A DNA stretch of 17,428 nt from a virus (taxonomy: Duplodnaviria > Heunggongvirae > Uroviricota > Caudoviricetes), in IMG/VR virus record IMGVR_UViG_2657244986_000007, positions 1 to 17,428 of that record; one strand, 5' to 3'. Within the stretch, counting starts at the first letter, position 1; each line of letters starts with the position of its first letter. The translations under genes were made by a program, and so were the position numbers. Shown piece by piece: positions 1 to 17,428 of the stretch. The notes under the pieces are model-generated. The model searched no databases. It saw only the letters and a program-made list of their open reading frames with translations, and had not been told where the DNA came from.

Positions 1-96
1 GGCGATTGCATTATCACGGTAATGATTAACAGCCCATGACAGGCAGACGATGATGCAAATAACCAGAGCGGAGATAATTGCGGTGACTCTGCTCAT
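1..96 (-). CDS. Rz: Rz spanin (inner-membrane subunit), N-terminal 32 codons only; gene runs off the left edge
   Basis: Minus-strand translation from the ATG at 96 reads [31 protein letters not shown]..., recognised as lambda Rz. The ATG overlaps the R stop (ATGA). Confidence 0.85.
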
Positions 97-876: not shown

Positions 877-1002
877 GTCTTACCCCCAATAAGGGGATTT
901 GCTCTATTTAATTAGGAATAAGGTCGATTACTGATAGAACAAATCCAGGCTACTGTGTTTAGTAATCAGATTTGTTCGTGACCGATATGCACGGGCAAAA
1001 CG

Positions 1003-1040
1003 GCAGGAGGTTGTTAGCGCAACCTCTTGCCACCCGCTTT
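1003..1040 (-). other. GC-rich hairpin followed by GTTTTGCCC in the S leader
   Basis: Minus strand reads GGCAAGAGGTTG-CGCTA-ACAACCTCCTGCC then GTTTTG. I believe the same structure exists in the lambda S upstream region; function unassigned. Confidence 0.35.
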
Positions 1041-1167
1041 CACGAAGCCAGCCATTGAGCTGGTTTTCTTTTATGCAAAGCACACCGCACCGTAGCCACA
1101 GCGGATAAGGTGATTATTTTTGTCTGTCTGGTATTTGGTTTGATGTGCTTTCAGAAAGGCCGTGCTT

Positions 1168-1201
1168 AAAACGCAAAAAGCCCCGAGCTATTAACTCAGG
1201 G
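1168..1201 (-). terminator. tR'-like intrinsic terminator
   Basis: Minus strand: GCCCTGAG-TTAATAG-CTCGGGGC (8-bp stem with one G.U) followed by TTTTTGCGTTTT, about 60 nt downstream of the predicted pR' start. Confidence 0.7.
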
Positions 1202-1232
1202 CTTTATTTAACGAGTGCATTTATCCATCGTT
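1172..1232 (-). ncRNA. Short pR' leader transcript (6S-RNA analogue, about 60 nt)
   Basis: Inferred from promoter and terminator positions; transcript ends were not measured. Confidence 0.4.
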
Positions 1233-1270
1233 GAGTCAAATTTACCCAACTTTATTCAAAAAGTCAATAT
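1232..1270 (-). promoter_or_regulatory. Late promoter pR' with Q-utilisation (qut) region
   Basis: Minus strand has TTGACT (plus 1262-1267), a 17-bp spacer and TAAATT (plus 1239-1244), directly downstream of the Q stop, as in lambda. Confidence 0.7.
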
Positions 1271-1309
1271 TATGCCGTTAATATGTTGCCATCCGTGGCA
1301 ATCATGCTG

Positions 1310-1933
1310 CTAACGTGTGACCGCATTCAAAATGTTGTCTGCGATTGACTCTTCTTTGTGGCATTGCACCACCAGAGCGTCATACAGCGGCTTAACAGTG
1401 CGTGACCAGGTGGGTTGGGTAAGATTTGGGATTAGCATCGTCACAGCGCGATATGCGGCGCTTGCTGGCATCCTTGAATAGCCGACACCTTTGCATCTTC
1501 CGCATTCTTTCTCAACAACTCTCCCCCACTGCTCTGTTTTTGCTATATCAACCGCACGGCCTGTACCGTGGCAATCTCTGCATCTTGCGCCCGGCGTCGC
1601 GGCACTACGGCAATAATCCGCATAAGCGAATGTTGCGAGCACTTGCAGTACCTTTGCCTTAGTATTTCCTTCAAGCTTTGCCACACCACGGTATTTCCCC
1701 GATACCTTGTGTGCAAATTGCATCAGATAGTTGATAGCCTTTTGTTTGTCGTTCTGGCTGAGTTCGTGCTTACCACAGAATGCAGCCATGCCGAATCCGG
1801 CTTGTGATTGCGCCATCCCCATAGCAGCCATCACATCAGTACCGGAAAGAGAGTCAGAAGCCGTGGCCCGTGGTGAGTCACTCATCATCGGGCTTTTTGG
1901 CGAATGAAATTTAGCTACGCTTTCGAGTCTCAT
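1310..1933 (-). CDS. Q: Late-gene antiterminator Q, 207 aa
   Basis: Protein [44 protein letters not shown]... is recognised as lambda Q, with its Cys-rich zinc-binding region. The start overlaps the upstream gene's stop (ATGA). Confidence 0.95.
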
Positions 1934-2595
1934 GCGCCTTCTCCCTGTACCTGAATCAATGTGAGGTTTCCGCAGAACACTGCGCCGGTATCGATATACA
2001 TCTGGTTGGCAAACTTGAGTGGTTTCACTGCTGGCGTATGACCAAAGATGAACGTGTCCGCGCCTTTGATTTCTTTCACGATCCCGTCTTGTGAGTTGCT
2101 GATTCGTTCGCGGTTCCAGATTACCTGCTGATGATCAACTGGCTTTCCAAACTCGTATTCGTCACAAGGATAATCGGCGTGGCAGATGACGTATTTTTTA
2201 CCTTTGCTCACCAGTTCGATGATTAACGGAAGTTCATCTGCTTTATGGGCAAGAGCTTTAGCCAGAATTTCTTTGTCGTAATCGAGATTAAAGAGCCAGC
2301 CACCGCCATTAAACAGCCAGTGATTGACGTTTCCACGCTCTGATAAGCCATCAATCATCATTTGCTCATGGTTTCCACGTACAGCTCTGAACCAGGTGAA
2401 TGTGATTAATTCCAGGCATTCAACGTTCTCTGTACCGCGATCGACCAAATCGCCAACAGAGATAAGCAGGTCTTTTTTGGTGTCGAATCCTATCGTCTCC
2501 AGTTTTTCCATCAGGTTCGTGTAGCATCCGTGCAGATCGCCAACTACCCAAATATTTCGGTATTTGCTGCCATCAATTCTTTCGTAATAGCGCAT
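1930..2595 (-). CDS. Ser/Thr protein phosphatase (lambda PPase / ORF221-like), 221 aa
   Basis: From [25 protein letters not shown]...GNHE: the GDLHG, GDLVDRG and GNHE metallophosphatase motifs are present. Start chosen at the internal ATG (2595) with a GGAG Shine-Dalgarno; the track's 2670 start is probably an upstream extension. Confidence 0.9.
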
Positions 2596-2779
2596 CTCTT
2601 TCACTCCATCCGCGATGAACCATAAGAACGTCGTTGACGATGGCGTGCATTTTCCCGTCTTTATCATCAACGTATTTTCTGACCGTACCGCGACTACATT
2701 TCAGTCTGCGTGCTACTTCTGTCTGGTTTCCGTATGCTTCAACGAGCATGTCTGGAATGGTTTTTACTGAGAACGTCAT
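2573..2779 (-). CDS. ninH: NinH, 68 aa
   Basis: Protein [37 protein letters not shown]... is recognised as lambda NinH (HTH-like). Sits between ninG and the phosphatase. Confidence 0.9.
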
Positions 2780-3387
2780 GCGGCCTCACTTCTGCTGTTT
2801 CGCAGGTCTTTGAGTTTCTGCTGATACTCCGCCTTGATGGCCCTGCACTCTTCGACAGTCCAGCGATGGCGGTTATGGTTTGATTCGATTTCGTCTACTG
2901 CTTCCTGCCCAATGCGATTAATCAGTTCGACGCGATACGGAACGAGATTTCCGCTTTTGTGCTGGTTGCACACCACGCATTGCTTGTGAATATTGCGTTC
3001 ATCAAATCGGAGTTGAGGTGCCGCAGCAGTTGTCCGGTAATGTCCGGCATCCCACTGAGCAGACGTGAGCGTTCCGCACGAGATACATGGTAAGTCGCGG
3101 TCTCTTTCTCTGATGAAGGCGTTTACGGCTTGTTGGGCTTGTTTAATCCAGTAACTGCGGGGCTTTAAGGCGAGTTTTCGAATCTTAAGTTTATCTTTCT
3201 GTTTCTGCTCCTCTCGTCGTCGTTTCTTCTCTGCTGCTTTTTCCGCTTTTTCGCGTTCTTTGCTTCGTCGTTCGAGTGCTATCTTTGTTCCACACTCTGG
3301 AGAGCACCACCACTGATTAGCGAATGCAGGGTGAAACCATTCCCGACATTCTTCGTTTTTACATCGTCTTCGCGCTGGTTTAGCCAT
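2776..3387 (-). CDS. ninG: NinG / Rap recombination-associated structure-specific endonuclease
   Basis: Protein [33 protein letters not shown]... is recognised as lambda NinG. Confidence 0.9.
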
Positions 3388-3556
3388 CGTCTTCTTCCTC
3401 GTACATTGAGCTATTCGGATCGCTCATCAGTTCTGCACAGCAGTGCTCACACACGTGAACTTCCAGCACATGCAGCTTCTGACCGCAGTTAGCGCACGTT
3501 AAAGCCCGCTCGACGCTTTCTTTCTGGTATTGAAGGGATTGGGATGGACTAAGCAT
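3380..3556 (-). CDS. ninF: NinF, 58 aa (absent from the ORF track because under 60 aa)
   Basis: Hand translation of the minus strand gives [58 protein letters not shown]. The stop overlaps the ninG ATG. Confidence 0.85.
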
Positions 3557-3896
3557 TATTGGCGTCCTGCATCATGAGAAATACAATCATGGCGGCGCGG
3601 AGTGGGTTGTTGTCTATGGTAATAAATTCACAAAATCTATCCGCCTCCCACCAATATTCATTCTTCATTCCAGGATTATTTCTTTCGTATGCACATATGC
3701 TGATCTGATGTTTTGCAATTACAGGCCATGCATCTGCTGGGTTATTGCAGTAGTCGTACCATCGATAATTACCATTTACTTCATTGCCAACAGACCGTCC
3801 ATCTGCGTTGTGCGGATAACCTAATGGTTTTGCCCCAACTATCGCTTTAAATACTCGCTTGTTAATTTCAAAATCACTTAACTGTGAATAATCCAT
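3549..3896 (-). CDS. Hypothetical nin-region protein (NinX / DUF2591-like), about 115 aa
   Basis: ORF MDYSQLSDFEINKRVFKAIVGAKPLGYPHNADG.... Start placed at the ATG at 3896 (AGGA Shine-Dalgarno 7 nt upstream); an ATG at 3902 coupled to the ninE stop is the alternative. The track's 3938 start is a GTG extension. Confidence 0.65.
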   Translation of the reverse strand: MDYSQLSDFEINKRVFKAIVGAKPLGYPHNADGRSVGNEVNGNYRWYDYCNNPADAWPVIAKHQISICAYERNNPGMKNEYWWEADRFCEFITIDNNPLRAAMIVFLMMQDANNA

Positions 3897-3898
3897 TG

Positions 3899-4075
3899 TC
3901 ATTTCCTCGCACGATGTCTTAGCCACCGGATATCCCACAGGTGAGCCGTGTAGTTGAAGGTTTTTACGTCAGATTCTTTTGGGATTGGCTTGCGTTTATT
4001 TCTGGAGCGTTTCGTTGGAAGGTATTTGCAGTTTTCGCAGATTATGTCGGTGATACTTCGTCGCTGTCTCGCCAC
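3899..4075 (-). CDS. ninE: NinE, 58 aa, GTG start (absent from the ORF track)
   Basis: Hand translation: (M)[57 protein letters not shown], recognised as lambda NinE. AAGGAGG lies 4 nt upstream of the GTG. Confidence 0.75.
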
Positions 4076-4215
4076 ACGTCCTCCTTTTCCTGCGGTAGTG
4101 GTAACACCCCTGTTGGTGTTCTTTCACATCGGAGACACCATCGATTCCAGTAAGGTTGCCCGGGTCGAAAGCGATCGTCTTCCTTTCGCTCTCCACATCG
4201 ATAACAGTGCTTCAT
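4042..4215 (-). CDS. ninD: Small Cys-rich protein, probable NinD (57 aa)
   Basis: [34 protein letters not shown].... The ATG overlaps the methyltransferase stop (ATGA). Size and position match lambda ninD; the sequence was not verified from memory. Confidence 0.55.
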
Positions 4216-4802
4216 GCGATCACCATTTTGCATGGTTTAATCGCCATGCCGGTAGCCAGTTCAAAATCGGAGTCGCACTGATTGCCCCACATATCCCACC
4301 CGGTCACTTTGTCGCGGCTAAATAACTCACAGCGCGGCACGTCGCCAAGCAACTTAGCTAACATGTCTCTTACGATCGGTGGTTTTGCACTGTGCTCCAT
4401 TCTCGGTGCGGTAAAGTGCTGGCATATTGAAGCGTCCATTCTCTCAGGTAACCGCCCTCGAACGGCAAACAAGCAATCCTCGCTATTTGCCCGGGTCATA
4501 TGCCCCATTCCGATCGCACTGTTGCCTTTGTGCTTATTGGTTTTGTGCCAAGTAAAGCCTTTCATAGTCATCAACCTGAATCCCCACGCCTCAATTACCT
4601 TTAGCGCTTCGGCTGGCTGTGTCGGCACCCACCACATCGCTAACAAGCAAGATTCTGGATCCGCTAAATCCCATACTGGCAGTCGGCAAATGTCCTGAAC
4701 ATTCATAACATCGTATTTATGTCCAGCACCGCGATTGCCATCGTTGGCTTTGTCGCGATATTGCCAAGGCGGATCTGCGTAAATAAGTCGGTATTTGTTC
4801 AT
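4212..4802 (-). CDS. DNA N6-adenine methyltransferase, MT-A70 family, 196 aa
   Basis: N-terminal motif YADPPW (DPPW catalytic motif) and overall MT-A70-like layout. Occupies the position of lambda ninC, coupled to the ninB stop. Confidence 0.8.
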
Positions 4803-5239
4803 TCAGTTTTATCTCCCCATCTCGCTTTCCACTCCAGAGCCAGTCGCGCTTCGTCTGACCATTTAACGCCACGTTCTGTACCGAATGCCTGTATAAGCTC
4901 TAATAGCTCCGCAAATTCGCCTACACGCATCCTGCTGGTTGACTGGCCTATTACCACAAAGCCATTCCCGGCAAGGTTAGGAACAACGTCCTGCTGCTTT
5001 AATGCTGCGGTAAACACACACTTCCAGCTTTCTGCATCCAGCCAGCGACCATGCCATTCAACCTGACGAGAGACGTCACCAAGGCAAGCCCAAAGCTTTC
5101 GGTTTTGGTCTAAGCTGCGGTTGCGTTCCTGAATGGTTACTACGATTGGTTTGGTTGGGTCTGGAAGGATTTGCTGGATAGCTTGAATGGCGTTCTGCTG
5201 ATGGATGGGGCTTCTTAGTTCAAACGTTAGTTTCCTCAT
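4799..5239 (-). CDS. ninB: NinB recombination protein, 146 aa
   Basis: Protein MRKLTFELRSPIHQQNAIQAIQQILPDPTKPIVVTIQERNRSLDQNRKLWACLGDV... is recognised as lambda NinB. Confidence 0.9.
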   Translation of the reverse strand: MRKLTFELRSPIHQQNAIQAIQQILPDPTKPIVVTIQERNRSLDQNRKLWACLGDVSRQVEWHGRWLDAESWKCVFTAALKQQDVVPNLAGNGFVVIGQSTSRMRVGEFAELLELIQAFGTERGVKWSDEARLALEWKARWGDKTE

Positions 5240-5474
5240 TGCTCACCTTCTGCACGCATGGATTAATTAACGCCAAAATAGCTTCTGGTTTCTCAATAAC
5301 ATCGAACCGCTCACCACTTGCCATTCTTACAATCGTAATCCCGGCCTCAAATAGGGTTTCGATGTTGTCAGAGTTAACGTACAAGGGCTCATATGCACTT
5401 CTGGTGCTTTCTATCACGCCTGTGCTTGGTGGCTGATAGATGCTGCATTGCATGGTTAATTTTATAAATGGCAT
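5220..5474 (-). CDS. Hypothetical protein, 84 aa
   Basis: ORF with a strong Shine-Dalgarno (GGAG 7 nt before the ATG), in the ren-equivalent position between the helicase and ninB. Confidence 0.6.
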   Translation of the reverse strand: MPFIKLTMQCSIYQPPSTGVIESTRSAYEPLYVNSDNIETLFEAGITIVRMASGERFDVIEKPEAILALINPCVQKVSNEETNV

Positions 5475-5478
5475 ATAC

Positions 5479-5742
5479 TCACTCCTTCACTTTGATTCCA
5501 GCGGCGCGGATAGCCTCTACATCGCTTTCGTATTGCGATTCTGCACCTGAGTCATAGCCAATGTGATAATCACCGGGAAGTGGGCCTTTCTTTGGCTTTT
5601 GCAGCTCAATCTCGATAGCTGCTCGCGATGCCTGCCACGCTTGCCAATACATCTCAACTATATTGGCGTATATTTTATTTTTAGGATCACATCCGGTGTA
5701 ATTTTCAAACCATTCTTCAAACTGCTTTCTTGATTCGTCCAT
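5479..5742 (-). CDS. Hypothetical protein, 87 aa
   Basis: ORF MDESRKQFEEWFENYTGCDPKNKIY... with a GAGGG Shine-Dalgarno upstream. Confidence 0.6.
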   Translation of the reverse strand: MDESRKQFEEWFENYTGCDPKNKIYANIVEMYWQAWQASRAAIEIELQKPKKGPLPGDYHIGYDSGAESQYESDVEAIRAAGIKVKE

Positions 5743-5759
5743 CGATACTTACCCTCAGT

Positions 5760-5966
5760 TCAACTCACAAAACGCCACGCCATTTTTGCTACAGCGACAG
5801 GCATAACACCGATAATCACCCACAGGAAAATGCTACCGAAAAGCACACCCACCAGGTCTTTACCTTCGCCTACCAACCGGACAAAACTGCTGGCAACAAC
5901 AATGAACGTCGCCACCATCCACATAGCACCGAGAATCCTCAATGCAGAGAAAATTAACTCAGCCAC
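5760..5966 (-). CDS. Small hydrophobic protein with two predicted transmembrane segments, 68 aa, GTG start
   Basis: (M)AELIFSALRILGAMWMVATFIVVASSFVRLVGEGKDLVGVLFGSIFLWVIIGVMPVAVAKMAWRFVS. GGAGG lies 7-8 nt upstream of the GTG. Confidence 0.5.
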   Translation of the reverse strand: MAELIFSALRILGAMWMVATFIVVASSFVRLVGEGKDLVGVLFGSIFLWVIIGVMPVAVAKMAWRFVS

Positions 5967-5981
5967 GATTCACCCTCCCCC

Positions 5982-6013
5982 AAATAAAAAGGCCTGCGAT
6001 TACCAGCAGGCCT
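5982..6013 (-). terminator. tR2-like intrinsic terminator between the replication and nin modules
   Basis: Perfect inverted repeat AGGCCTGC-N8-GCAGGCCT (5990-6013) followed on the minus strand by TTTTTATTT. Confidence 0.7.
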
Positions 6014-6038
6014 GTTATTAGCTCAGTAATGTAGATGG

Positions 6039-7415
6039 TCATACGTCCGCTCCTTGTGCATATCGTCTGCCACGTGCAGCGGGTGCATTTGATGTTGTGC
6101 AAATCTGTCTGGCTTCATCCTGGTCACATGCAACAAAGTGTCCGTTGCAGAACCGCTGGTAAACCGTACCAAGCGAGCCAAAACGGTTTTTTGTCACAAT
6201 GATTTCAGCAAATGGTGCGGCGCTACTGTTCTCGTCATATACCGCTTCCCGATAGAGCATGATGATTGAGTCTGCGTCCTGTTCAATGCTTCCTGAATCA
6301 CGCAAATCTGCGTTTGTCGGGCGTTTGTTTGGTCGCTTCTCAACATCGCGCGAAAGCTGACTCAGGGAGATAACAGGCGTTTTCAGGTCTTTCGCCATCG
6401 CCTTCAGGCTTCCGGAGATGTGAGCAATTGCGAGGTCGTTGCGGTCTGCTTTCGGCTTCTCAATCAGGCCAAGATAATCCGCCATGATGAGTGACAGGTT
6501 TGGATTTTCCTGTTTGTGCCGTTCTGCGATTGAGCGTATTTCTTCGACCGATAACCGCGAGGCATCGACTACCCATACATCCAAATCTGCAAGCTGACTC
6601 ATGCCGTTAGCAACGCGCGCCCAGCCTTCGTCATCCATCGATGCAGGATTTCGCAGCACGCTAACCGACATCCTCCCGGCGTTGGCAATACTTCGCTCTG
6701 CAATCTGCAATGCGCTCATTTCCATCGAGAAAATCAACACTCCGCGCCGGACGTCAGAACCAGGAATAACGCGGCTTGCAACGCCTTCGGCAATCTTCAG
6801 CGCCAGTTCGGTTTTACCCATACCAGGACGAGCGGCGATAATCACCAGGTCTTCTGCGTTCATCCCTCCGGTGATGGCGTCAAGTTCGTCGATTCCGGTC
6901 TTCAGGGTATCTGACTCTTCTCCGTTCCTCAGACGCCTGTCAAGCGTGTCAGTGTAGTCAGTGATGATTTCCCCTAACCGTACAGGTTTAACCTCGTCAC
7001 GGGGCTTTCTGATGGCTGAAAGACGCTTTACAAGTTCATCCATCGCCTGACTCGATGCGTCGATGGTTCCGCTTTGGATTGGTTCACGCATTTCATCCAT
7101 GATTTCCAGCACCAGACGGCGGTGATAGTTATCCGCGACCATTCCGGCATATCCCTTCAGGTTTGCGGCACTCGGGCAGTTTTTGCTGGTCATCAGGATT
7201 GACGTGAAATGCTCCTCTCCGCACGCCTCGGCAACCATCAGCGCATCGATTAGGTTTCTGTTTCTCGCCTGCTTGCGAATAACCTCGAAGGCTTTCCGGT
7301 AGAGCGGAATTGAAAACGCTTCCGGCTCTAGCGTTGCCAGAACGTCGCTGGCAGTTGGTGTTAATCCACCAATCAGCAGGCCACCGATAACGCTCGCTTC
7401 GATATCCTGTTTCAT
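6039..7415 (-). CDS. Replicative DNA helicase, DnaB family, 458 aa
   Basis: Walker A ARPGMGKT and DnaB-like N- and C-terminal regions. Its ATG overlaps the O stop (ATGA). Confidence 0.9.
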
Positions 7416-8233
7416 GCAATCCCCCTGTCTGCAAACTTCCCTTCCCGTACTCCCATTAACGAATCTTCCCTCAGCAGGTAATCAAAATCAGCTGTCCAGC
7501 CCGTGTCGTTGTCTCCGAAGTAAAACGGCTTGGCCTGATGCACAAACGCCCTGACATACGCTCTGAAACCGTCCACGTTTGGCGTTTTCAGTTGCGGGAT
7601 GATTTTCTTCAGGCGGCGTTTGCGTTTCTCGTTGACCGCAACAGCGTGTGGCAGTCTGTCACCGACTTCGGTGTTGTAGGCGTTCAGGAAGGATTCGTAG
7701 TCGATTCGTTCTGCCTTGCGACGTTCAGGTTTAACCTGCCCATCGCCGCCCCCGTTAGGGGGTAAGGGGGTATTTGTATTTATTGTCTTTTGTATATTGT
7801 CTTTTGTGTTTAGCTGACTTGGCTTATACCCATTAGCCGACTCGGCTAATGTTTTATTAGCTGTTTTAGCTAATGTTAAGCTGTCCTGGCTAATCCACTG
7901 AGAAACCACCTTGTTCACTCCGATTTTCACGCCATCAGCAATGAGGAATTTACGCTCGATAAGCTGGCGCTTGGCAGCGCAAACATGAGTGTGATGAATA
8001 CCTGTCATGGCTGCTATCTGCGTGTTTGTGAGTCGATCCATCGGCTTATTGAATCCGTATGTCTTGCGCATGATAGCGAGCATCACCTTCAGCTGCCGGA
8101 CGGTTAAATCAGCCATCAGCAGACTGTCGGTAATCTCGTTAGCAACGCGCATGAAACCATCTTCGGTATCTGCCACGCGATGCTCCACGACCTCCAGTTG
8201 AGGCCTGTAATCAGCTAACTTAACGACGCCCAT
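7412..8233 (-). CDS. O: Replication initiator protein O (lambda O-like), 273 aa
   Basis: The N-terminal region (...[37 protein letters not shown]...) resembles lambda O. The gene contains the iteron array. Confidence 0.9.
7766..7894. repeat. Replication origin inside O: four iterons of about 19 bp plus an adjacent AT-rich region
   Basis: Iterons TTAGCTGACTTGGCTTATA, ATTAGCCGACTCGGCTAAT, ATTAGCTGTTTTAGCTAAT and TTAAGCTGTCCTGGCTAAT at about 7810-7894. AT-rich tract 7766-7809, next to a G-rich CCCCCGTTAGGGGGTAAGGGGG run. Confidence 0.8.
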
Positions 8234-8381
8234 GTTTCACTCCTGCTTTGGCTAGTCTGTAAACACCAACAAGGCGCTCTGCGAACGCCCTGCTATTTGC
8301 TGCGGCTACCACTAATCCCTCAGGTGAATCAGGGTGTCGAATCTCTTCTTTTTCCTGGTATTTCTTACGACGTTTTGTCAT
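8220..8381 (-). CDS. Small basic protein, 53 aa, between cII and O
   Basis: Hand translation: [58 protein letters not shown] lies 6 nt upstream of the ATG. The 3' end overlaps the O start. Confidence 0.45.
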   Translation of the reverse strand: MTKRRKKYQEKEEIRHPDSPEGLVVAAANSRAFAERLVGVYRLAKAGVKHGRR

Positions 8382-8384
8382 AAT

Positions 8385-8459
8385 TACTCCTGTGGATTGA
8401 TCCAGTCTTTCTACATCAGGCCTCGAAGAATTCGCCGTTCTTCGGGGCTTTTTCTTTTG
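8385..8459 (+). ncRNA. oop: oop-like antisense RNA overlapping the 3' end of cII, ending at an intrinsic terminator
   Basis: Plus-strand hairpin CCTCGAAGAA-TTCGCCG-TTCTTCGGGG (8421-8447) followed by CTTTTTCTTTTG, inside the last codons of cII, as for lambda oop. The 5' end and promoter were not located. Confidence 0.5.
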
Positions 8460-8697
8460 TCAGGTAATTGGCAAGCCGCTTAGTCAGCTCAGCCATTTCA
8501 TCGTCTTCGATTCCGTATTCCAGAACAGCCAGCATCATGCTTACCTGCGAGAAGAAACCATTCTTCCATCGGCTTACCTGATATTCAGGAACCCCCATCG
8601 CTCGAGCGAATGTCTTCTGCCCCATCAGTGCCAGTTTGTTCAGCAAGGCTGACTCGATGCGAGCCGCTTTCTTGCTTTTAGTTGCAATAGTACCCAT
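8416..8697 (-). CDS. cII: CII transcriptional activator homolog, 93 aa
   Basis: ...ARIESALLNKLALMGQKTFARAMGVPEYQVSRWKNGFFSQVSMMLAVLEYGIEDDEMAELTKRLA... resembles lambda CII. Confidence 0.9.
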   Translation of the reverse strand: MGTIATKSKKAARIESALLNKLALMGQKTFARAMGVPEYQVSRWKNGFFSQVSMMLAVLEYGIEDDEMAELTKRLANYLTKEKAPKNGEFFEA

Positions 8698-8719
8698 AGA
8701 TAATTTCCTTAATGATTAG

Positions 8720-8760
8720 ATAGAGTTGGCTTCGCAAAGAAACGCAAAACCATAGAGATT
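8720..8760 (+). promoter_or_regulatory. Probable pRE region with a CII-binding direct repeat (TTGC-N6-TTGC)
   Basis: Complement of 8724-8737 reads TTGCGTTTCTTTGC, at the 5' edge of cII and oriented for leftward (plus-strand) transcription toward cI. Confidence 0.55.
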
Positions 8761-8773
8761 TTTTTCTGGTAAT

Positions 8774-8805
8774 GCCCTTTTTCAGGGCGGGGATGTGTAA
8801 GAGCG
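8774..8805 (-). promoter_or_regulatory. nutR (boxA plus boxB hairpin)
   Basis: Minus strand reads CGCTCTTACACATCCCCGCCCTGAAAAAGGGC: boxA CGCTCTTACACA and the boxB stem-loop GCCCTGAAAAAGGGC, as in lambda nutR. Confidence 0.85.
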
Positions 8806-8813
8806 GGAATGTC

Positions 8814-10166
<1,353 letters not shown>

Positions 10167-10216
10167 TCCTCACCTCGATTTCGATAACCAAAAAACAAAC
10201 TATTTTCCGTTTAAAA

Positions 10217-10284
10217 ACAATGGAGTTTGTTTTTCACGCCCCTTTTTACAATATTTCTTGTTTACAACATACAATCTTTCTTGT
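10217..10284. promoter_or_regulatory. Left operator OL (three 434-type sites) with pL
   Basis: ACAATGGAGTTTGT (10217-10230), ACAATATTTCTTGT (10248-10261) and ACAATCTTTCTTGT (10271-10284), all ACAA-N6-TTGT. Confidence 0.85.
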
Positions 10285-10328
10285 AATTTTAAGCCATCAG
10301 CAGGACGCACTAACCACCATTGAAGGTG

Positions 10329-10359
10329 AGGCTCTTAAAAATTTAGCCCTGAAGAAGGG
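10329..10359 (+). promoter_or_regulatory. nutL (boxA plus boxB hairpin)
   Basis: GGCTCTTAAAAATTTAGCCCTGAAGAAGGGC: boxA-like GCTCTTAAA and the boxB stem-loop GCCCTGAAGAAGGGC. Confidence 0.8.
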
Positions 10360-10470
10360 CAGCATTCAAAGCAGAAAGCTTTGAGTAGCGCGAAATGCAG
10401 CTGCAAGGCAGCAACCGTGGAGATAAGCATCACGGCGCGTTACTCAAAGCTAACTGACAGGAGAATCCAG

Positions 10471-11368
<898 letters not shown>

Positions 11369-11401
11369 TTAAAAGACAGGCATACTAATAAACACTGCAC
11401 T

Positions 11402-11429
11402 GTGTATTCATTCCAACGAGTGAATACAC
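11402..11429. repeat. Perfect 9-bp inverted repeat, GTGTATTCA-N10-TGAATACAC
   Basis: Seen directly in the sequence. No U-tract on either strand, so it looks operator-like or RNA-structural rather than a terminator. Confidence 0.6.
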
Positions 11430-11491
11430 GGAGCAATGTCGCTCGTAACTAAACAGGAGCCGACTTGTTCTGATTATTGGAAATCTTCTTT

Positions 11492-11519
11492 GCCCTCCAA
11501 TGTGAGGGCAGTTTTTTTT
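11492..11519 (+). terminator. Intrinsic terminator (tL-like) 13 nt upstream of the next start codon
   Basis: GCCCTC-CAATGT-GAGGGC followed by AGTTTTTTTT. Confidence 0.7.
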
Positions 11520-11532
11520 GACGGAGTAAACG

Positions 11533-11781
11533 ATGATAAAAACTGATTACCCTGCAGAGCTTAAACAAAAAGTAATAACAGCAATTAAATGCTCTTTTAT
11601 CTCATGTCGTACAGATGAAGAACGATATGTCGTTGAGTGTGCAATTGTCGAGTTTCTCACAGCGATGGAATTTACCGCTGCAGAATCAATAGATGTATTA
11701 AAGCAATCAGACGGAAATGATATTGAAACGGATGATGTTATTGACCGACTAATAAAATCATTCGAAGAAGAAATAGAGTAG
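11533..11781 (+). CDS. Small acidic protein, 82 aa, unknown function
   Basis: MIKTDYPAELKQKVITAIKCSFISCRTDEERYVVECAIVEF...DGNDIETDDVIDRLIKSFEEEIE, with an acidic C-terminus. GGAG Shine-Dalgarno upstream. Confidence 0.65.
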   Translation: MIKTDYPAELKQKVITAIKCSFISCRTDEERYVVECAIVEFLTAMEFTAAESIDVLKQSDGNDIETDDVIDRLIKSFEEEIE

Positions 11782-11864
11782 CCGCCTGAGCGCGGCTTTA
11801 CCGCATACCAATAATGCTTCACGAGAGGCATTTTCGTTATGCAATCAAATATAAGGAGTTACCC

Positions 11865-11999
11865 ATGATGCACTTTCAGCTCGCGGGTAGCGGCGTCATG
11901 TCCGCTTTCTACCCGCACGAATCTGAATTATCACGCCGAGTTAAACAATTAATCAGAGCAGCAAAGAAACAACTGGAGGCGTTATGCGCAATGAAATAG
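11865..11999 (+). CDS. cIII: CIII-like small protein (putative FtsH-inhibitor helix), 44 aa
   Basis: MMHFQLAGSGVMSAFYPHESELSRRVKQLIRAAKKQLEALCAMK. Its central amphipathic helix resembles lambda CIII (ESLLERITRKLRDGWKRL). AAGGAG Shine-Dalgarno upstream. Confidence 0.55.
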   Translation: MMHFQLAGSGVMSAFYPHESELSRRVKQLIRAAKKQLEALCAMK

Positions 12000-12136
12000 C
12001 CATTAATCACCAGATGCTTCGTGCTGCACAGAACAAAGCAGTAATAGCCAGATTTATTGGTGATTCCAAAATGTGGCTTGAAGCAAATAAAGCGATGAAA
12101 TCAGCCATCAACCTTCCGTGGTATCGCAGGAAATGA
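11984..12136 (+). CDS. Small protein, 50 aa, possibly Kil-like
   Basis: Hand translation: MRNEIAINHQMLRAAQNKAVIARFIGDSKMWLEANKAMKSAINLPWYRRK. GGAGG Shine-Dalgarno upstream; overlaps the cIII-like 3' end in another frame. The Kil assignment is a recollection of a FIGDxKM-like motif, unverified. Confidence 0.4.
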   Translation: MRNEIAINHQMLRAAQNKAVIARFIGDSKMWLEANKAMKSAINLPWYRRK

Positions 12137-12211
12137 GTTTTACAGATAACTGGTAAGACGAAGAATTCATTCGTCAGATGAAAGAATTAATCGGTAACGA
12201 AGGAGATATTC

Positions 12212-12382
12212 ATGTCACTTGCAACCACAGTGAAGGAGAGCAAGTTACAGAGACGCATGTACACGCAGAAAGCTCTCTGGTATCGCCATAATGGCGACCG
12301 CGAAGGAATGCGGGTATGCCTTAATTTGTCCCGAGTCGAAGTATTAAATCAGCGTTATTTTCTTGGGCCATGTCCATTCTGA
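12212..12382 (+). CDS. Small hypothetical protein, 56 aa
   Basis: MSLATTVKESKLQRRMYTQKALWYRHNGDREGMRVCLNLSRVEVLNQRYFLGPCPF. AAGGAGA Shine-Dalgarno upstream. Ends 8 nt before the annealing-protein start. Confidence 0.4.
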   Translation: MSLATTVKESKLQRRMYTQKALWYRHNGDREGMRVCLNLSRVEVLNQRYFLGPCPF

Positions 12383-12390
12383 GGTGATTT

Positions 12391-13098
12391 ATGGATTTGA
12401 ATAAATTCGATGAGCCATTCAGCCCTGAAGATATCGAATGGCGAATACAGCAAAGCGGTAAAACACGCGATGGCAAAGTGTGGGCTATGGTGCTGGCTTA
12501 TGTCACGAACCGGGCAATCATGAAACGCCTGGACGATGTTTGCGGCAAAGCAGGATGGCGCAATGAATACCGCGATATTCCCAACAACGGAGGCGTTGAA
12601 TGCGGCATATCAATCAGGATTGATTCCGAATGGGTAACCAAATGGGATGCTGCTGAAAACACGCAGGTAGAAGCCGTCAAAGGTGGTCGTTCAGGTGCAA
12701 TGAAGCGTGCTGCCGTTCAGTGGGGAATCGGTCGGTATCTGTATAACCTTGAGGAAGGTTTCGCACAAACATCTCTCGATAAAAAGCATGGGTGGCACAG
12801 GGCAAAACTGAAGGATGGAACAGGATTTTACTGGTCCCCTCCATCGCTGCCGGGCTGGGCAATCCCAGCATCAGATAACAAACCATCACCAGAAAATACC
12901 AACCAGAAATCTCCATCGGTTGACTGCGAACAAATCCTGAAAGACTTCAGCGATTATGCGTCAACAGAAACTGACAAGAAAAAACTCATCGAGCGTTATC
13001 AGCGTGACTGGCAATTAATGGCTGGCAACGAGGAGGCGCAGGCTAAATGCGTTCAGGTAATGAACATCAGAGTTAACGAGCTAAAACAGGCGGCATAA
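12391..13098 (+). CDS. Single-strand annealing recombinase, Rad52/Rad22 family, 235 aa
   Basis: Central motif ...GGRSGAMKRAAVQWGIGRYLYNL... is typical of Rad52-type phage annealing proteins. Located upstream of SSB and an exonuclease. Confidence 0.8.
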   Translation: MDLNKFDEPFSPEDIEWRIQQSGKTRDGKVWAMVLAYVTNRAIMKRLDDVCGKAGWRNEYRDIPNNGGVECGISIRIDSEWVTKWDAAENTQVEAVKGGRSGAMKRAAVQWGIGRYLYNLEEGFAQTSLDKKHGWHRAKLKDGTGFYWSPPSLPGWAIPASDNKPSPENTNQKSPSVDCEQILKDFSDYASTETDKKKLIERYQRDWQLMAGNEEAQAKCVQVMNIRVNELKQAA

Positions 13099-13572
13099 AT
13101 GGCAAGCAGAGGCGTAAATAAGGTGATCATTATTGGTCGCCTTGGGCATGATCCAGAAATCAGATATTCACCATCAGGAACGGCATTTGCAAACCTTACA
13201 GTTGCTACGTCAGAACAATGGCGTGATAAGCAAACTGGAGAGCAAAAGGAGCAGACGGAGTGGCACCGCGTGGTAATGAGCGGGAAACTGGCAGAAATTG
13301 CCAGCGAATATCTGCGAAAAGGCTCTGAGGTTTATCTTGAAGGAAAATTGCGGACAAGAAAATGGCAGGATCAAAGCGGACAGGATCGGTTCACTACCGA
13401 AGTCATCGTGGGCGTTGGTGGAACCATGCAAATGCTTGGTGGCAAGCAAGGAGGCAATGAACAGTCTTCACCTCAGCGAAATAACGGCCAGCAACAAAGA
13501 CAGCAATCTCAGCAGCATGGGAATCACAGCGAACCACCTATGAACTTCGACGATTCGGATATTCCGTTCTAG
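13099..13572 (+). CDS. ssb: Single-stranded DNA-binding protein (SSB), 157 aa
   Basis: OB-fold N-terminus ([43 protein letters not shown]...TEWHRVV), Gly/Gln-rich linker and acidic tail ending DDSDIPF. Confidence 0.95.
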
Positions 13573-13581
13573 GAGCTGAAT

Positions 13582-14061
13582 ATGAAAGTCTGCTCAAGAT
13601 GCCATCAACAGAAGGAAGAAAGGGACTTTCAAATCAGAAGAGCATCCAGAGATGGATTAACTGCCGCTTGCCGGGCTTGCCTGGCTGAATACGACAAAGA
13701 ACGCGCTGGATTGCCACATCGAGTATCAGCAAGGAGAGAATATCAATCATCGGAACGCGGAAGAGAACGGTGTAACGCAGCCAAAAAGCGGTTCATTCAG
13801 AGCAACCCATGGAAAAGAAAAGCCCACATCATTGTGGGTAATTTTTTGCGCGACGGTAAGCTAATCCGACCACCACAATGTGAGTGCTGCGGATCAGAAT
13901 GTAAACCACAGGCGCACCACTGCGACTACAGCAAACCAACCGATGTGATGTGGCTCTGCAAGTCATGTCATGTCGAGTGGCACAAACATAACAAACCTAT
14001 CTACCCAGACGAGGAACCAGTAACTCTCCCCTTCCCTCGTCACGCTATTCACGCAATTTAA
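13582..14061 (+). CDS. HNH-family endonuclease, 159 aa
   Basis: Cys pairs CSRCH, CRAC and CECCG, plus ...QAHHCDYSKPTDVMWLCKSCHVEWH, consistent with an HNH/zinc-binding nuclease motif. Confidence 0.7.
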   Translation: MKVCSRCHQQKEERDFQIRRASRDGLTAACRACLAEYDKERAGLPHRVSARREYQSSERGRERCNAAKKRFIQSNPWKRKAHIIVGNFLRDGKLIRPPQCECCGSECKPQAHHCDYSKPTDVMWLCKSCHVEWHKHNKPIYPDEEPVTLPFPRHAIHAI

Positions 14062-14069
14062 GGACTTAC

Positions 14070-14618
14070 ATGAATCACTTGATGGTTGACCTTGAAACAA
14101 TGGGCAACGGGCCATACGCGCCAGTTATTTCTATTGGGGCGGTATTCTTTGACCCGAATACCGGAGAAACAGGAGAAGAGTTCTCGGTAAATATCTCGCT
14201 TGAATCATCAATGCGATATCGAGCGCGTCCTGACGCTTCAACGATTTTATGGTGGCTGGAACAGAGTGAAGAAGCCAGAAAATCGCTAACCAGCAACACT
14301 CAGGAGCTTTCAACGGCTCTTTCATGGTTATCTGAATTCATCATAAAGAACGCTAACCACAAATTCGTTCAGGTTTGGGGGAATGGAGCATCATTTGACT
14401 GCGTTATTCTCCGAAACAGTTATTCGCTGACAGGGCAGCCAGTTCCGTGGCAGTGGTGGAATGACCGCGACGTAAGAACAATCGTCGAACTTGGGAAGGT
14501 AATAGGATTCGACCCTAAGCGAGATATGCCATTCAAAGGAACTCGCCACAACGCGCTTGATGATGCCATTCACCAAGCCAAATACGTTTCAGCGATCTGG
14601 AAAAAGTTAGCTAAATAA
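14070..14618 (+). CDS. 3'-5' exonuclease, DEDD (DnaQ-like) family, 182 aa
   Basis: Exo I motif MVDLETMG and Exo III motif H-NALDDA; size and layout fit DEDDh exonucleases. Confidence 0.8.
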   Translation: MNHLMVDLETMGNGPYAPVISIGAVFFDPNTGETGEEFSVNISLESSMRYRARPDASTILWWLEQSEEARKSLTSNTQELSTALSWLSEFIIKNANHKFVQVWGNGASFDCVILRNSYSLTGQPVPWQWWNDRDVRTIVELGKVIGFDPKRDMPFKGTRHNALDDAIHQAKYVSAIWKKLAK

Positions 14619-14634
14619 TCAACAGGAGAAAACC

Positions 14635-14931
14635 ATGCCAGCGCCTCTGTATGGTGCGGATGACGCGCGCCGCTGTTCCGGCAATTCCGTATCGGAGGTG
14701 CTGGATAAATTCAGAAAAAACTACGATCGGATAATGTCGCTACCGCAGGAAACGAAAGAGGAAAAGGAATTTCGCCATTGTATATGGCTTGCAGAGAAAG
14801 AAGAACGAGAGCGAATTTACCAGACATCAATCCGACCATTCCGCAAAGCCACATATACCCAATTCCCTGAATATATCGACCCGCGCCTGCGTAATTACCG
14901 CTCACGCTATGGCGCTATCAGTAATGACTGA
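14635..14931 (+). CDS. Hypothetical protein, 98 aa
   Basis: ORF with AGGAGA Shine-Dalgarno upstream; no recognisable motif. Confidence 0.55.
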
Positions 14932-14941
14932 GGAATTTACC

Positions 14942-15109
14942 ATGAGAGGACTTGCATACAATCCCGGCATTCTTCCGGCAGAAATGATTATTCGCCAACG
15001 CGTAAAGCCAATGCCATCGAGAGAGGAATTGCTTAAGAGAAAGAGTTTCGGTTCTGTTAATGACAACAAATATCTGAATGCGATGTTGCGCAAAGGAGGC
15101 AACCGGTGA
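14942..15109 (+). CDS. Hypothetical small protein, 55 aa
   Basis: [55 protein letters not shown], with GAGGAA upstream. The track ORF 14789..15109 is probably an extension. Confidence 0.45.
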
Positions 15110-15189
15110 CTGGACATGCAGCGATCCTCGACATGTGCTGTGGCAGCCGCATGTTCTGGTTAGATAAGAATGACGAACGGGCGAGATAA
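15106..15189 (+). pseudogene. 27-codon ORF with a strong RBS, possibly a truncated methyltransferase N-terminus (gene remnant)
   Basis: AGGAGG lies 5 nt before a GTG that overlaps the preceding stop (GTGA). Peptide (M)[26 protein letters not shown]; ILDMCCGS resembles SAM-binding motif I. Stops in all frames follow. Confidence 0.3.
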
Positions 15190-15239
15190 GCGATCGGTTA
15201 AGTGCTATAGTAATGCGCTTTTGTATTTATGGAGTGAAT

Positions 15240-15938
15240 ATGAAAAATATCCTACTGGCATCATTGTTAGTGGCATCGCCGGGTGCATTTGCAGCCAGCT
15301 TTGACTGCCAAAAGGCTTCGACAGCAATCGAACATAAAATCTGCGATAACGAACGTCTGTCAAAATTAGACGAACAGCTTAGCTCTGCCTATTCTAGTGC
15401 CCTCAAAGAAAACCCAGAGAACGCAGACACCATAAAAATGGTTCAACGTCAGTGGGTAAATATGCGTGGAAAACTCACTGATAATAAGGCTCTGGAGCTG
15501 GCTTATCTTATCCAAATTAATGGCCTCAAAGGTTTGGGGAGTTCAGTCAGCGTAACAGCGGCCAATGAGATACCCACGTCGACGCAGAAACATTCTGAAG
15601 AGCAGGAAGAAACAAGTAAGGCAGAAGTTAAGTCGGTCAAGAACGGCAATAAGCTAACCTTAGAGTCATTCCGAGCTAAATATGTAGAAGTAGATGGTGA
15701 GTATTACAGCACGACATCCATTCCTAGAGGCAGTTCGTTCTTGTTCACTTGCGCCAGTCGTATTGCTGATGACCAAGTGAATGTTTGGAAGAAACATGCA
15801 GCCAAAGAGGGCAAAATCGACCTATTCTTTGAGGTTGAGAATCACTTACACACTGCTATGTTGAACGCCAATTTCCAGAAGTTGAATTCAGACCCTGCCA
15901 AAAGAGGTATTTGTAATCTGATTAACGCAGTGCCGTAA
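15240..15938 (+). CDS. Secreted protein with an N-terminal LprI-like (DUF1311, lysozyme-inhibitor-like) domain, 232 aa
   Basis: Signal peptide MKNILLASLLVASPGAFA, then FDCQKASTAIEHKICDNERLSKLDEQLSSAYSSALKE...QRQWVNMRG, the hallmark DUF1311 pattern. AT-rich gene. The track start at 15213 is an extension. Confidence 0.75.
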   Translation: MKNILLASLLVASPGAFAASFDCQKASTAIEHKICDNERLSKLDEQLSSAYSSALKENPENADTIKMVQRQWVNMRGKLTDNKALELAYLIQINGLKGLGSSVSVTAANEIPTSTQKHSEEQEETSKAEVKSVKNGNKLTLESFRAKYVEVDGEYYSTTSIPRGSSFLFTCASRIADDQVNVWKKHAAKEGKIDLFFEVENHLHTAMLNANFQKLNSDPAKRGICNLINAVP

Positions 15939-15948
15939 GTAAATTTAG

Positions 15949-15978
15949 GGCCACAGTTGTGGCCTTAAATATTTTTTC
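15949..15978 (+). terminator. Putative intrinsic terminator after the LprI-like gene
   Basis: GGCCA-CAGTTG-TGGCC followed by TTAAATATTTTTT. Confidence 0.55.
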
Positions 15979-16106
15979 AGCCTTTTCTTATTTGTAATAA
16001 GCAGTACTTAGTAGTGCTTATAAAACAGAATAAAAAACATATGACTTTGGCGATTACCCAGTAAAGATATTCGAAATAAATGTAAATATCGGCAATGAAT
16101 AACAAT

Positions 16107-16133
16107 CCTCGCACTCGCGGGGATTTCTTTTAT
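16107..16133 (+). terminator. Hairpin plus U-tract immediately upstream of the 16145 gene (terminator or attenuator-like)
   Basis: CCTCGC-ACTC-GCGGGG (one G.U pair) followed by ATTTCTTTTAT. The RBS GGGGA and the ATG follow within about 12 nt. Confidence 0.4.
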
Positions 16134-16144
16134 ATGGGGATAAT

Positions 16145-16945
16145 ATGACCATCCACTTTCACGGCAGCCCAATATGGGGGGATGAGCATGCCCCTACAGA
16201 TATGCTGATTAAAGCCCTTTACCGTGATGGTGGGGCTTTTGTTTCATTTGCCAGACCAGAGCAGATGAAAAAGATTGCCATGTTCCCTTGTGATATACGC
16301 CTTGATAACGGCGCTTTTAGCGACTGGATGAAAGCATTAAAGAAAGGCACTCCGGTAGACTGGAGTAAGAGGCGAGCAAAATTCTACGACTTTGTTGGGA
16401 AGTGGTTCAGCAGAATTGAATGGTTTCTTATACCTGACGTTATCGAAGGGACAGAGGCAGAAAACGACGAGCAGATTGAGTTGGTTCCTGATTGGCTAAA
16501 ATCAAAAGCGGTTCCGGTCTGGCATACCGACGAATCAATTGAACGTCTTTTACGCCTTTCTGGCAAATTTGAATGGGTGGCGATTGGATGCTGCGGCCCA
16601 CACAGGCACATACGCTCTAAATGGTGGGAACAGAGAATGGATGAAGTTTTCACTGAGCTTTATATCAATCGTAATTTGAAAGTGAAAATTCATGGTCTTC
16701 GAATGCTCGACGTGAGAGTTCTTGGTATGTATCCGTTCGCCAGTGCGGATTCTACTAATGTTGCTGTTAACGTACCGAAGACAGAGAAGCGATTTCCTGA
16801 GATTACTGACAAACTGGCACGTACAGCTGTACTTCGCGCTGCTATTGAAAAGGTGCACCCGCCATCGATATCAGCATGGGTAGACAGAAAGATGAGAGAG
16901 CCGGCGCAAGCCGGTTTTTTATTTGAATTCACCGACGCCGCTTAA
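16145..16945 (+). CDS. Protein of unknown function, 266 aa
   Basis: Long ORF preceded by GGGGA. No motif I can assign with confidence (no P-loop, no PP-loop, no HTH recognised). Confidence 0.75.
   Translation: MTIHFHGSPIWGDEHAPTDMLIKALYRDGGAFVSFARPEQMKKIAMFPCDIRLDNGAFSDWMKALKKGTPVDWSKRRAKFYDFVGKWFSRIEWFLIPDVIEGTEAENDEQIELVPDWLKSKAVPVWHTDESIERLLRLSGKFEWVAIGCCGPHRHIRSKWWEQRMDEVFTELYINRNLKVKIHGLRMLDVRVLGMYPFASADSTNVAVNVPKTEKRFPEITDKLARTAVLRAAIEKVHPPSISAWVDRKMREPAQAGFLFEFTDAA
16899..16924 (+). terminator. Intrinsic-terminator-like hairpin with a GCAA tetraloop inside the last 15 codons of the 16145 gene
   Basis: CCGGC-GCAA-GCCGG followed by TTTTTTATTT. Confidence 0.55.
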
Positions 16946-16964
16946 TGCGGATTTCTTTTATCTG

Positions 16965-16989
16965 AACTCGCTACGGCGAGTTTTGTTTT
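16965..16989 (+). terminator. Intrinsic terminator downstream of the 16145 gene
   Basis: AACTCGC-TACG-GCGAGTT followed by TTTGTTTT. Confidence 0.6.
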
Positions 16990-17002
16990 ATGGAGATGAT
17001 AA

Positions 17003-17170
17003 ATGCACTTCCGAGTAACAGGTGAATGGAATGGAGAACCATTCAACAGAGTTATCGAAGCAGAGAACATCAACGACTGCTATGACCACTGGATGCTGTG
17101 GGCGCAGATGGCACATGCAGACGTAACCAATATTCGAATTGAAGAACTGAAAGAACACCAAGCCGCCTGA
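17003..17170 (+). CDS. Small hypothetical protein, about 55 aa
   Basis: MHFRVTGEWNGEPFNRVIEAENINDCYDHWMLWAQMAHADVTNIRIEELKEH.... GGAGA Shine-Dalgarno upstream. The 3' end is uncertain by a few nt: my hand reading and the ORF track disagree on the stop position. Confidence 0.4.
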   Translation: MHFRVTGEWNGEPFNRVIEAENINDCYDHWMLWAQMAHADVTNIRIEELKEHQAA

Positions 17171-17186
17171 TGGCGGTTTTTTATTG
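17160..17186 (+). terminator. Intrinsic terminator
   Basis: CCGCC-TGAT-GGCGG followed by TTTTTTATT. Confidence 0.7.
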
Positions 17187-17227
17187 CCTGATTTGCAGGT
17201 TCGATTCCCTATTCGGAGATAGCACTC

Positions 17228-17428
17228 ATGCAACACGAACTACAGCCTGATTCACTGGTTGATTTGAAATTCATCATGGCCGATACTGGATTCGGTAAAA
17301 CCTTCATCTATGACCGGATTAAGTCCGGAGACCTTCCAAAAGCCAAAGTTATCCACGGGCGAGCAAGATGGTTATATCGTGACCATTGTGAATTCAAAAA
17401 TAAGCTCTTAAGCCGCGCCAATGGGTAA
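17228..17428 (+). CDS. Excisionase / AlpA-family small DNA-binding protein (Xis-like), 66 aa
   Basis: ...LKFIMADTGFGKTFIYDRIKSGDLPKAKVIHGRARWLYRDHCEF... looks like an AlpA/Xis-type HTH. It sits at the distal end of the leftward operon where xis is expected; integrase would lie beyond the window. Confidence 0.55.
   Translation: MQHELQPDSLVDLKFIMADTGFGKTFIYDRIKSGDLPKAKVIHGRARWLYRDHCEFKNKLLSRANG

Follow-up and report, generated by a model that had tools for sequence, protein, structure and literature searches.

A 27-codon open reading frame (ORF) lies among the early-left genes of a lambdoid or P22-like prophage. We think it very probable that this ORF is all that is left of a methyltransferase gene, its dead 5' end, which was cut and joined to an imported LprI cassette and later spread. 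The ORF lies on the + strand of the stretch of DNA that we analysed, which we call the window (17,428 nucleotides, positions 1 to 17,428 of IMG/VR virus record IMGVR_UViG_2657244986_000007). The features discussed below are, in the coordinates of the window:

14942–15109, + strand: DUF2737 gene (Pfam PF10930, E 1.9e-30; same annotation at the identical E. coli locus, L004)
15089–15109, + strand: conserved module-boundary sequence CGCAAAGGAGGCAACCGGTGA, 21 nt, at the left edge of the mobile block
15106–15184, + strand: 5' remnant (codons 1–26) of a class I SAM-dependent methyltransferase gene (tblastn, PHROG, DNA identity)
15180–15184, + strand: crossover interval GGCGA, identical in both parents (four intact genes against six cassette copies)
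15185–15201, + strand: 3' end of a phiTE_072-family gene, read in frame with the remnant (cassette-copy alignments)
15203–15211, + strand: candidate extended -10 element TGcTATAGT, unchanged in 8 cassette copies except at the free position n
15240–15938, + strand: LprI-like (DUF1311) gene with an N-terminal signal-like sequence (Pfam LprI, E 8e-5; phrog_4675, E 6.8e-95)
15943–15980, + strand: intrinsic terminator, 12-bp stem, 4-nt loop and T-run (terminator scan, RNA fold)
15976–16042, + strand: AT-rich filler with an internal inverted repeat (15983–16035 self-complementary)
16043–16102, + strand: 3' remnant of an ASCH-domain gene, last 19 codons and stop (C-terminus of 933W L0064)

The reading frame and its setting

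The genes in this part of the window run Erf, SSB, exonuclease, Abc2, DUF2737 and then xis. Positions 14900–17428 are 100% identical to a prophage adjoining dsdC in E. coli 2018-01-1CC, and the RefSeq record of that strain has no feature annotated from DUF2737 to the LprI-family gene, so the relic is unannotated there. The stop of DUF2737 (TGA, 15107–15109) is overlapped by the GTG of the ORF (15106–15108), an AGGAGG at 15094–15099 is separated from this GTG by a spacer of 6 nt, and the frame ends at a TAA at 15187–15189. The sequence around the start reads ...CGCAAAGGAGGCAACCGGTGACTGGA... in the window. A first-pass annotation of the window, made from the letters alone, had described the AGGAGG, the GTG overlapping the previous stop and the frame of 27 codons, and reading the sequence bears all of this out. 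It had also called the ribosome-binding site (RBS) an orphan, and this description does not quite fit: the AGGAGG belongs to a conserved module-boundary sequence that is common to many gene junctions of the region.

A further claim had been that all frames are closed immediately after the ORF. It stands insofar as the methyltransferase continues in none of the frames, but taken literally it fails, as a 44-codon ATG frame is open over 15170–15304 and the LprI frame is open from 15213.

Match to the N-terminus of a methyltransferase

When an intact homologue was compared with the window by tblastn, residues 1–26 aligned with the ORF at 84.6% identity (E 1e-11). The 27-residue peptide by itself matched the DNA-methyltransferase families phrog_11564 (E 1.4e-11) and phrog_954 (E 3e-9), and 24 of the 26 remnant residues are identical in protein P0001, an intact E. 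coli relative of 161 aa. At the DNA level the remnant is 92.5% identical to the intact gene at locus L010. Residues 3–23 of the remnant also match phrog_7811, a family of 41 positions labelled 'methyltransferase', which may gather methyltransferase stubs like the one in the window.

Searching phage genomes with the peptide (tblastn) returned annotated methyltransferases that start with the same peptide. For example, Stx2c phage LC727890 has a 164-aa ORF whose GTG overlaps the stop of an Ea22-like gene and is preceded by the same AAAGGAGG, while E. coli NRZ14408 (161 aa, WP_192459672.1) and many O157:H7 strains have genes for class I SAM-dependent methyltransferases of 161–162 aa that are 91–92.5% identical to 15089–15194. 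Overall the intact homologues are 157–170 aa long and share the N-terminal peptide and the same AGGAGG and GTGA junction. The first-pass annotation had proposed this search and had allowed that the ORF might instead be a short leader peptide or chance, should related phages have no full-length homologue beginning with the peptide; full-length homologues with the same AGGAGG and GTGA-overlap start do exist in related phages and prophages (LC727890, NRZ14408 and P0001).

Residues 27–161 of the methyltransferase are absent in every frame of the whole window, every other match of a permissive tblastn search having E > 0.7. The closest candidate trace, EHTLCDGRRL against EHKICDNERL (E 0.75), was rejected because it lies inside LprI and is native to the LprI of the SSU5 copies as well. 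We therefore rejected a frameshift or sequencing error in a complete gene, since tblastn with a permissive word size found no trace of residues 27–161. That the ORF arose by chance, or is the start of a complete methyltransferase broken by sequencing error or read through a programmed frameshift, has almost no probability in our judgement. Short ORFs are frequent and a second frame is open over 15170–15304, but a homology of E 1e-11, the lack of residues 27–161 in any frame of the window and the presence of the identical junction in more than 100 independent assemblies all speak against it.

The parent family

The family to which the parent gene belongs is large: 7,492 proteins match at E <= 1e-5, and clustering at 50% leaves 2,008 representatives. 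Pfam gave only below-threshold matches to the parent methyltransferase and PDB sequence searches gave no significant match; PHROG 954 'DNA methyltransferase' (E 7.5e-88) and the PADLOC profiles MTase_II (E 1.2e-73) and orphan MTase (E 2.2e-49) matched it. A first structure prediction from a shallow alignment was discarded (pLDDT 56.5). The AlphaFold model of the intact relative P0001, made with a 65-sequence alignment, has a pLDDT of 94.3, and the structures that Foldseek ranks highest for it, Trm11 and M.TaqI among them, all belong to SAM-dependent methyltransferases (E values down to 7.6e-6). Judging by this predicted structure of intact P0001, the family from which the remnant stems belongs to the class I SAM-dependent methyltransferases and has a complete Rossmann-type fold. 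DNA is a putative substrate, named as such by PHROG, PADLOC and phage annotation.

Several residues, among them D9, D30 and D70-P-P-H73, are invariant across 65 diverse family members. The remnant retains strand beta-1, the loop that follows it and ILDMCCGS (residues 7–14). This had been noticed as resembling SAM-binding motif I, and rightly so: L8, D9, C12 and G13 vary little or not at all among the 65 members. D30, the acidic residue of motif II that ends strand beta-2, is missing because the ORF stops at residue 27, and motif IV, D70-P71-P72-H73 of the amino-methyltransferase (D/N)PP(Y/F/H) type, is absent from the window by tblastn. Compared with the prophage methyltransferase family of about 160 aa (PHROG 954/11564; PADLOC MTase_II/oMTase), the remnant thus has the same RBS, the same overlap of GTG and stop and the same motif I LDMCCGS, but it lacks residues 27–161 with D30, DPPH and the rest of the Rossmann-type fold. 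Without motif II and the catalytic DPPH it cannot be a methyltransferase.

The same family is repeatedly broken in E. coli prophages (PhiR42_1, locus L003; EC11, L006; O157:H7 strain 2159, L012). In the PhiR42_1 copy that adjoins DUF977 (L003 3001–3480), codon 119 is changed from AAA to TAA and the annotated product is 118 aa long, while the sequence of the methyltransferase runs on in frame past this stop. The copy in O157:H7 strain 2159 (L012 3518–3991) is flagged 'internal stop'.

The left breakpoint

In the alignment, the window tracks four intact methyltransferase genes through ...GACGAACGGGCGA and then departs from them. The last base diagnostic of the methyltransferase genes is 15179 and the first diagnostic of the cassette is 15185, which places the crossover within the GGCGA at 15180–15184. 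These five bases are part of a 15-nt patch (15172–15186) in which 11 positions match between the parents.

From there on the frame continues into the end of a phiTE_072-family gene, whose native stop is at 15199–15201. The window reads GAC GAA CGG GCG AGA TAA GCG ATC GGT TAA and a plasmid copy reads CAC GAT CAG GCG AGA GAA GCA ATC GGT TAA, so that the GAA of donor-type copies corresponds to the TAA at 15187–15189 that closes the ORF in the window. Without this TAA the ORF would have 31 codons and would end at the stop of the donor gene. Since its last codon and its stop derive from the tail of the phiTE_072-family gene that precedes LprI, the 27-codon ORF is a chimera.

The T of the TAA matches the T that the intact methyltransferase genes have at this position, and it is also found in an Enterobacter plasmid copy. 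Its origin is therefore ambiguous, and the crossover could be slightly more complex. The plasmid is pFJMB80002_2 of Enterobacter hormaechei (L037 600–731), in which a frameshift lies close to the end of the phiTE_072-family gene and the tail has the same GAGATAAGC as the window, with T replacing G. The stop of the ORF may therefore be inherited from such a donor.

We also considered a breakpoint at 15194, to which the BLAST homology with the methyltransferase genes extends with one gap, and rejected it in favor of 15180–15184. From 15185 onward, the window aligns with the cassette copies ungapped with 2 mismatches in 27 nt, whereas over 11 nt the alignment with the methyltransferase takes two mismatches and a gap. 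We read the similarity to the methyltransferase past 15184 (AGCGAT) as probably due to chance.

An alignment of related prophages across this region had been suggested along with the idea that the ORF is a gene truncated at the edge of the LprI-like cassette. That alignment defines the breakpoint, with homology to the intact genes stopping at 15179–15184, and it supports the truncation. The homology breaks exactly where the LprI-cassette DNA starts, so the ORF marks the boundary of the cassette.

The LprI cassette and its relatives

The LprI-like gene has an RBS (GGAG) at 15231–15234 and starts 50 nt past the stop of the relic; the matching genes at loci L004, L001 and L007 are annotated as LprI family. 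The cassette and its flanks are 82–84% identical to Salmonella phage SSU5, to E. coli plasmids and to 127 records of SSU5-like phage-plasmids. These 127 records are about 100–120 kb long, are mostly non-mobilizable plasmids and come from Enterobacter, Escherichia, Citrobacter, Kluyvera and Shigella. In SSU5 and all of the plasmid relatives the homology spans window positions 15171/15183 to 15975. The LprI gene of SSU5-like elements is preceded by a 183-aa phiTE_072-family gene (SSU5_100 ends ...DDQSREAVG*), which is intact in most of the plasmid copies that we compared.

Between the stop of the relic and the start of LprI lies TGnTATAGT (15203–15211), which we take as a candidate promoter of the LprI cassette; the eight copies compared came from both lambdoid prophages and phage-plasmids. 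A consensus promoter scan upstream of LprI returned no promoter, and it missed this element because no -35 element is present. The terminator is a strong one that consists of a stem-loop at 15943–15970 followed by a T-run, and lies inside the DNA common to the SSU5-like copies.

A moron (Juhala, Hendrix and colleagues; summarised in PMC3029335) is an additional gene that has a promoter and a terminator of its own and lies inserted between two phage genes. Like the morons of lambdoid phages, the LprI cassette is one added gene with its own terminator and a lower G+C content than its surroundings, and it lies in the early-left 'ea' region with a candidate promoter of its own. It also shows presence and absence with sharp edges, at 15180–15184 and at about 15975–16042, with relatives that run from methyltransferase to ASCH without LprI; in mEp235, DUF2737 is followed almost directly by xis. 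It differs from a moron in that it would have replaced genes instead of being set between two intact neighbours, in that it carried along a stub of the donor's upstream gene, and in that its promoter is a candidate only. Our literature search on LprI in prophages, orphan methyltransferases and Pas sRNAs found nothing specific to this locus.

The right flank and the replaced segment

The homology to SSU5 and the 127 plasmid records stops at 15975. Positions 15974–16028 resemble an intergenic stretch of other SSU5-like phage-plasmids (Cyrano, CMS-2020a and PhiR41_1, 80–83% identity), and beyond the AT-rich filler the window continues with the end of an ASCH-domain gene, DFGDYPVKIFEINVNIGNE, which corresponds to the C-terminus of L0064 of phage 933W, HFGDKPVKVFAIKVNIGNE. 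The DNA identity of this flank is 87% over 16044–16136, and a hairpin at 16104–16125 follows the ASCH remnant.

In two unrelated elements (L010 and L041) the order is methyltransferase, Ea22, other genes, DUF551 and ASCH, all in the same orientation. As the right side of the cassette has the 3' end of an ASCH gene and these relatives run from methyltransferase to ASCH, the cassette would have replaced the interior, about 2–3 kb that started at codon 27 of the methyltransferase gene and stopped 19 codons before the end of the ASCH gene. The first-pass annotation had spoken of a gene truncated when the cassette was inserted. The truncation at the cassette edge agrees with this, but the ASCH remnant on the opposite side points to replacement instead of plain insertion.

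Further to the right, an 812-nt segment (16137–16948) is absent from ev099 and 933W. It is bounded by a 16-nt direct repeat, GGATTTCTTTTAT(A/C)TG, at 16121–16136 and 16949–16964, and contains a 266-aa ORF (16145–16945) that matches phrog_887 'queuine tRNA-ribosyltransferase' (E 1.4e-102). This ORF had no match in Pfam, NCBIfam, PDB-sequence or PADLOC searches, which makes the phrog_887 name doubtful.

The boundary sequence and the spread of the junction

The 21-nt boundary sequence CGCAAAGGAGGCAACCGGTGA contains both the AGGAGG and the GTGA stop/start overlap. With 0–2 changes, the same 21 nt stand upstream of intact methyltransferase genes that follow eae-like, Ea22-like and other genes, and they end the DUF2737 genes of Sf6 and mEp235, where unrelated genes come next. 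Thus CGCAAAGGAGGCAACCnGTGA is found after DUF2737, Ea22-like, eae-like and other genes, and before a methyltransferase, Sf6 gene 22 or an Ea22 remnant. The homology of the window to the context of the ev099 type starts at 15089, that is, at the first base of this sequence.

'Boundary sequences' have been proposed for lambdoid phages (Clark et al. 2001 for HK620; cited in PMC3029335), and the Sf6 record NC_005344 has annotated 'bsq' features. The junction sequence in the window, about 21 nt, is likewise common to unrelated neighbours and lies at the edge of an exchanged block; it differs in not being among the annotated 'bsq' features that we saw. The internal join at 15180–15184 is unlike a lambdoid boundary sequence and would be an illegitimate join.

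A second relic of this kind occurs in mEp235 (L035 2008–2070), where a 20-codon ORF, VNKIDYQALREIAKHQRLTE*, follows the same DUF2737 GTGA junction. It is the 5' end of an Ea22-like gene, and its Sf6 counterpart is annotated 'bsq3; boundary sequence'. As in the window, an intact RBS and GTGA start are followed by a few codons of a known gene and then by unrelated DNA; in mEp235, though, the parent is Ea22-like and the downstream DNA is the xis-int region.

We searched the window for further copies of the boundary sequence and of the LprI initiation region as recurring linkers, and each occurs only at its own site. A repeat search of the window did find that 15215–15234 and 16976–16995 are 75% alike (GCGCTTTTGTATTTATGGAG and GCGAGTTTTGTTTTATGGAG). 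Both have a T-rich tail and then GGAG, upstream of LprI and of a 55-aa ORF (17003–17170) respectively, and they may be additional linker-type sequences that separate the small genes found here.

A pattern spanning the junction was found in 22 IMG/VR contigs, and the junction is base-identical there, in phage ev099 and in E. coli chromosomes. The genes upstream of 15089 vary among the copies (DUF2737 in two alleles, an Ea22-like gene and a third gene). Among complete E. coli genomes, 107 of 5,426 have the junction, behind at least 3 different upstream genes. About 940 further E. coli genomes match the methyltransferase-gene part of the query only; among the matches listed, these hits lie under an annotated methyltransferase gene, which in some cases is broken. 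When one genome per species was scanned for the exact pattern, the junction turned up in none of them.

Does the relic have a function?

The mini-ORF has kept all of its initiation signals, and transcription of the early-left operon therefore probably still leads to its translation. Most likely this translation is passive and without a role. We compared 25 copies and found 3 variable sites in the 84 nt of the remnant (one of them non-synonymous), 22 in the 699 nt of LprI and 6 in 198 nt of downstream DNA, with no loss of the start codon and no indel in the remnant in any copy. By this comparison there is no sign of special constraint on the remnant, although with copies this alike the test is not a strong one: at 98–100% identity the lambdoid copies are young, so the lack of a selection signal has little power.

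Searches for RNA structure gave nothing at the relic. Its folding was no better than that of shuffled sequence (z = +0.96), no attenuator-like structure was found, and Rfam had no match at the gathering threshold, the others being at E > 0.2. As for a leader peptide, a gap of 50 nt separates the relic from the start of LprI and no RNA structure links the two.

It is highly improbable, in our view, that the relic is a functional small ORF, either a leader or uORF affecting LprI or downstream genes or an active micropeptide. The initiation signals are all intact, the start is kept without indels in the 25 copies, and the ORF ends 50 nt short of the LprI start, at the putative promoter. However, the intact signals are simply those of the parent gene, and the remnant, in which one of the changes is non-synonymous, has diverged as much as the DNA on its flanks. 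No structure resembling an attenuator is present, LprI in the SSU5-like copies is expressed behind a completely different upstream gene, and the Ea22 relic of mEp235 at the same junction indicates that such relics are common by-products. We are very doubtful as well of a milder version, in which translation of the relic, coupled to the upstream stop, keeps ribosomes moving up to the promoter and RBS of LprI and so tunes LprI or xis/int; if true, it would explain the intact start in all of the copies seen.

Proposed origin

For the dead front end of a methyltransferase, we propose the following history. Illegitimate recombination at GGCGA (15180–15184) would have joined codons 1–26 of a methyltransferase gene to the tail of a phiTE_072-family gene, which would have arrived from an SSU5-like phage-plasmid lineage along with the LprI-like gene and the terminator of the cassette. 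The other end of the cassette came to abut, on this reading, the last 19 codons of the ASCH gene, with the 'ea'-region genes in between, some 2–3 kb, being replaced. This joining probably occurred once. The block from 15089 to 16136 would then have passed from one lambdoid E. coli prophage to another through homologous exchange, with the boundary sequence on its left as the site. With only about 83% identity, the nearest relatives of the cassette do not include the actual donor, and we infer the direction of transfer.

An internal deletion could in principle give the same arrangement, if an ancestor had carried the methyltransferase, phiTE_072, LprI and ASCH genes in cis and had lost the DNA in between through deletions at short homologies. 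The pool of 'ea' genes is common to lambdoid phages and to SSU5-like and other phage-plasmids, and these phage-plasmids also carry this methyltransferase family: the methyltransferase of p96_1414P-1 has 89.6% DNA identity and the same boundary sequence, and phages of about 95 kb match the peptide. A junction in a patch of microhomology also fits deletion as well as insertion. We nevertheless consider this origin unlikely. No record was found with an intact methyltransferase and phiTE_072-LprI in cis, the remnant is already present in all of the chromosomal copies of the cassette, and two separate deletions would be required, one for each junction. In addition, the cassette is about 83% identical to the phage-plasmid copies, whereas the remnant is 92% identical to lambdoid alleles.

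What the locus means

Phage mosaicism ordinarily leaves scars like this relic, which is a feature of a known kind. Its catalytic part is gone, so nothing suggests that it affects methylation in the host. With the origin proposed here, both of the accepted routes of mosaicism would be seen at one locus at single-base resolution, an illegitimate join of 5 nt and spread through a boundary sequence, and the locus would show, resolved to the base, how a gene passed from SSU5-like phage-plasmids to lambdoid prophages. The relic could be marked as a methyltransferase pseudogene fragment so that it is not called as a small protein. We expect the finding to serve annotation and the study of phage evolution above all, as a clean case of DNA exchanged by phage-plasmids and lambdoid prophages.
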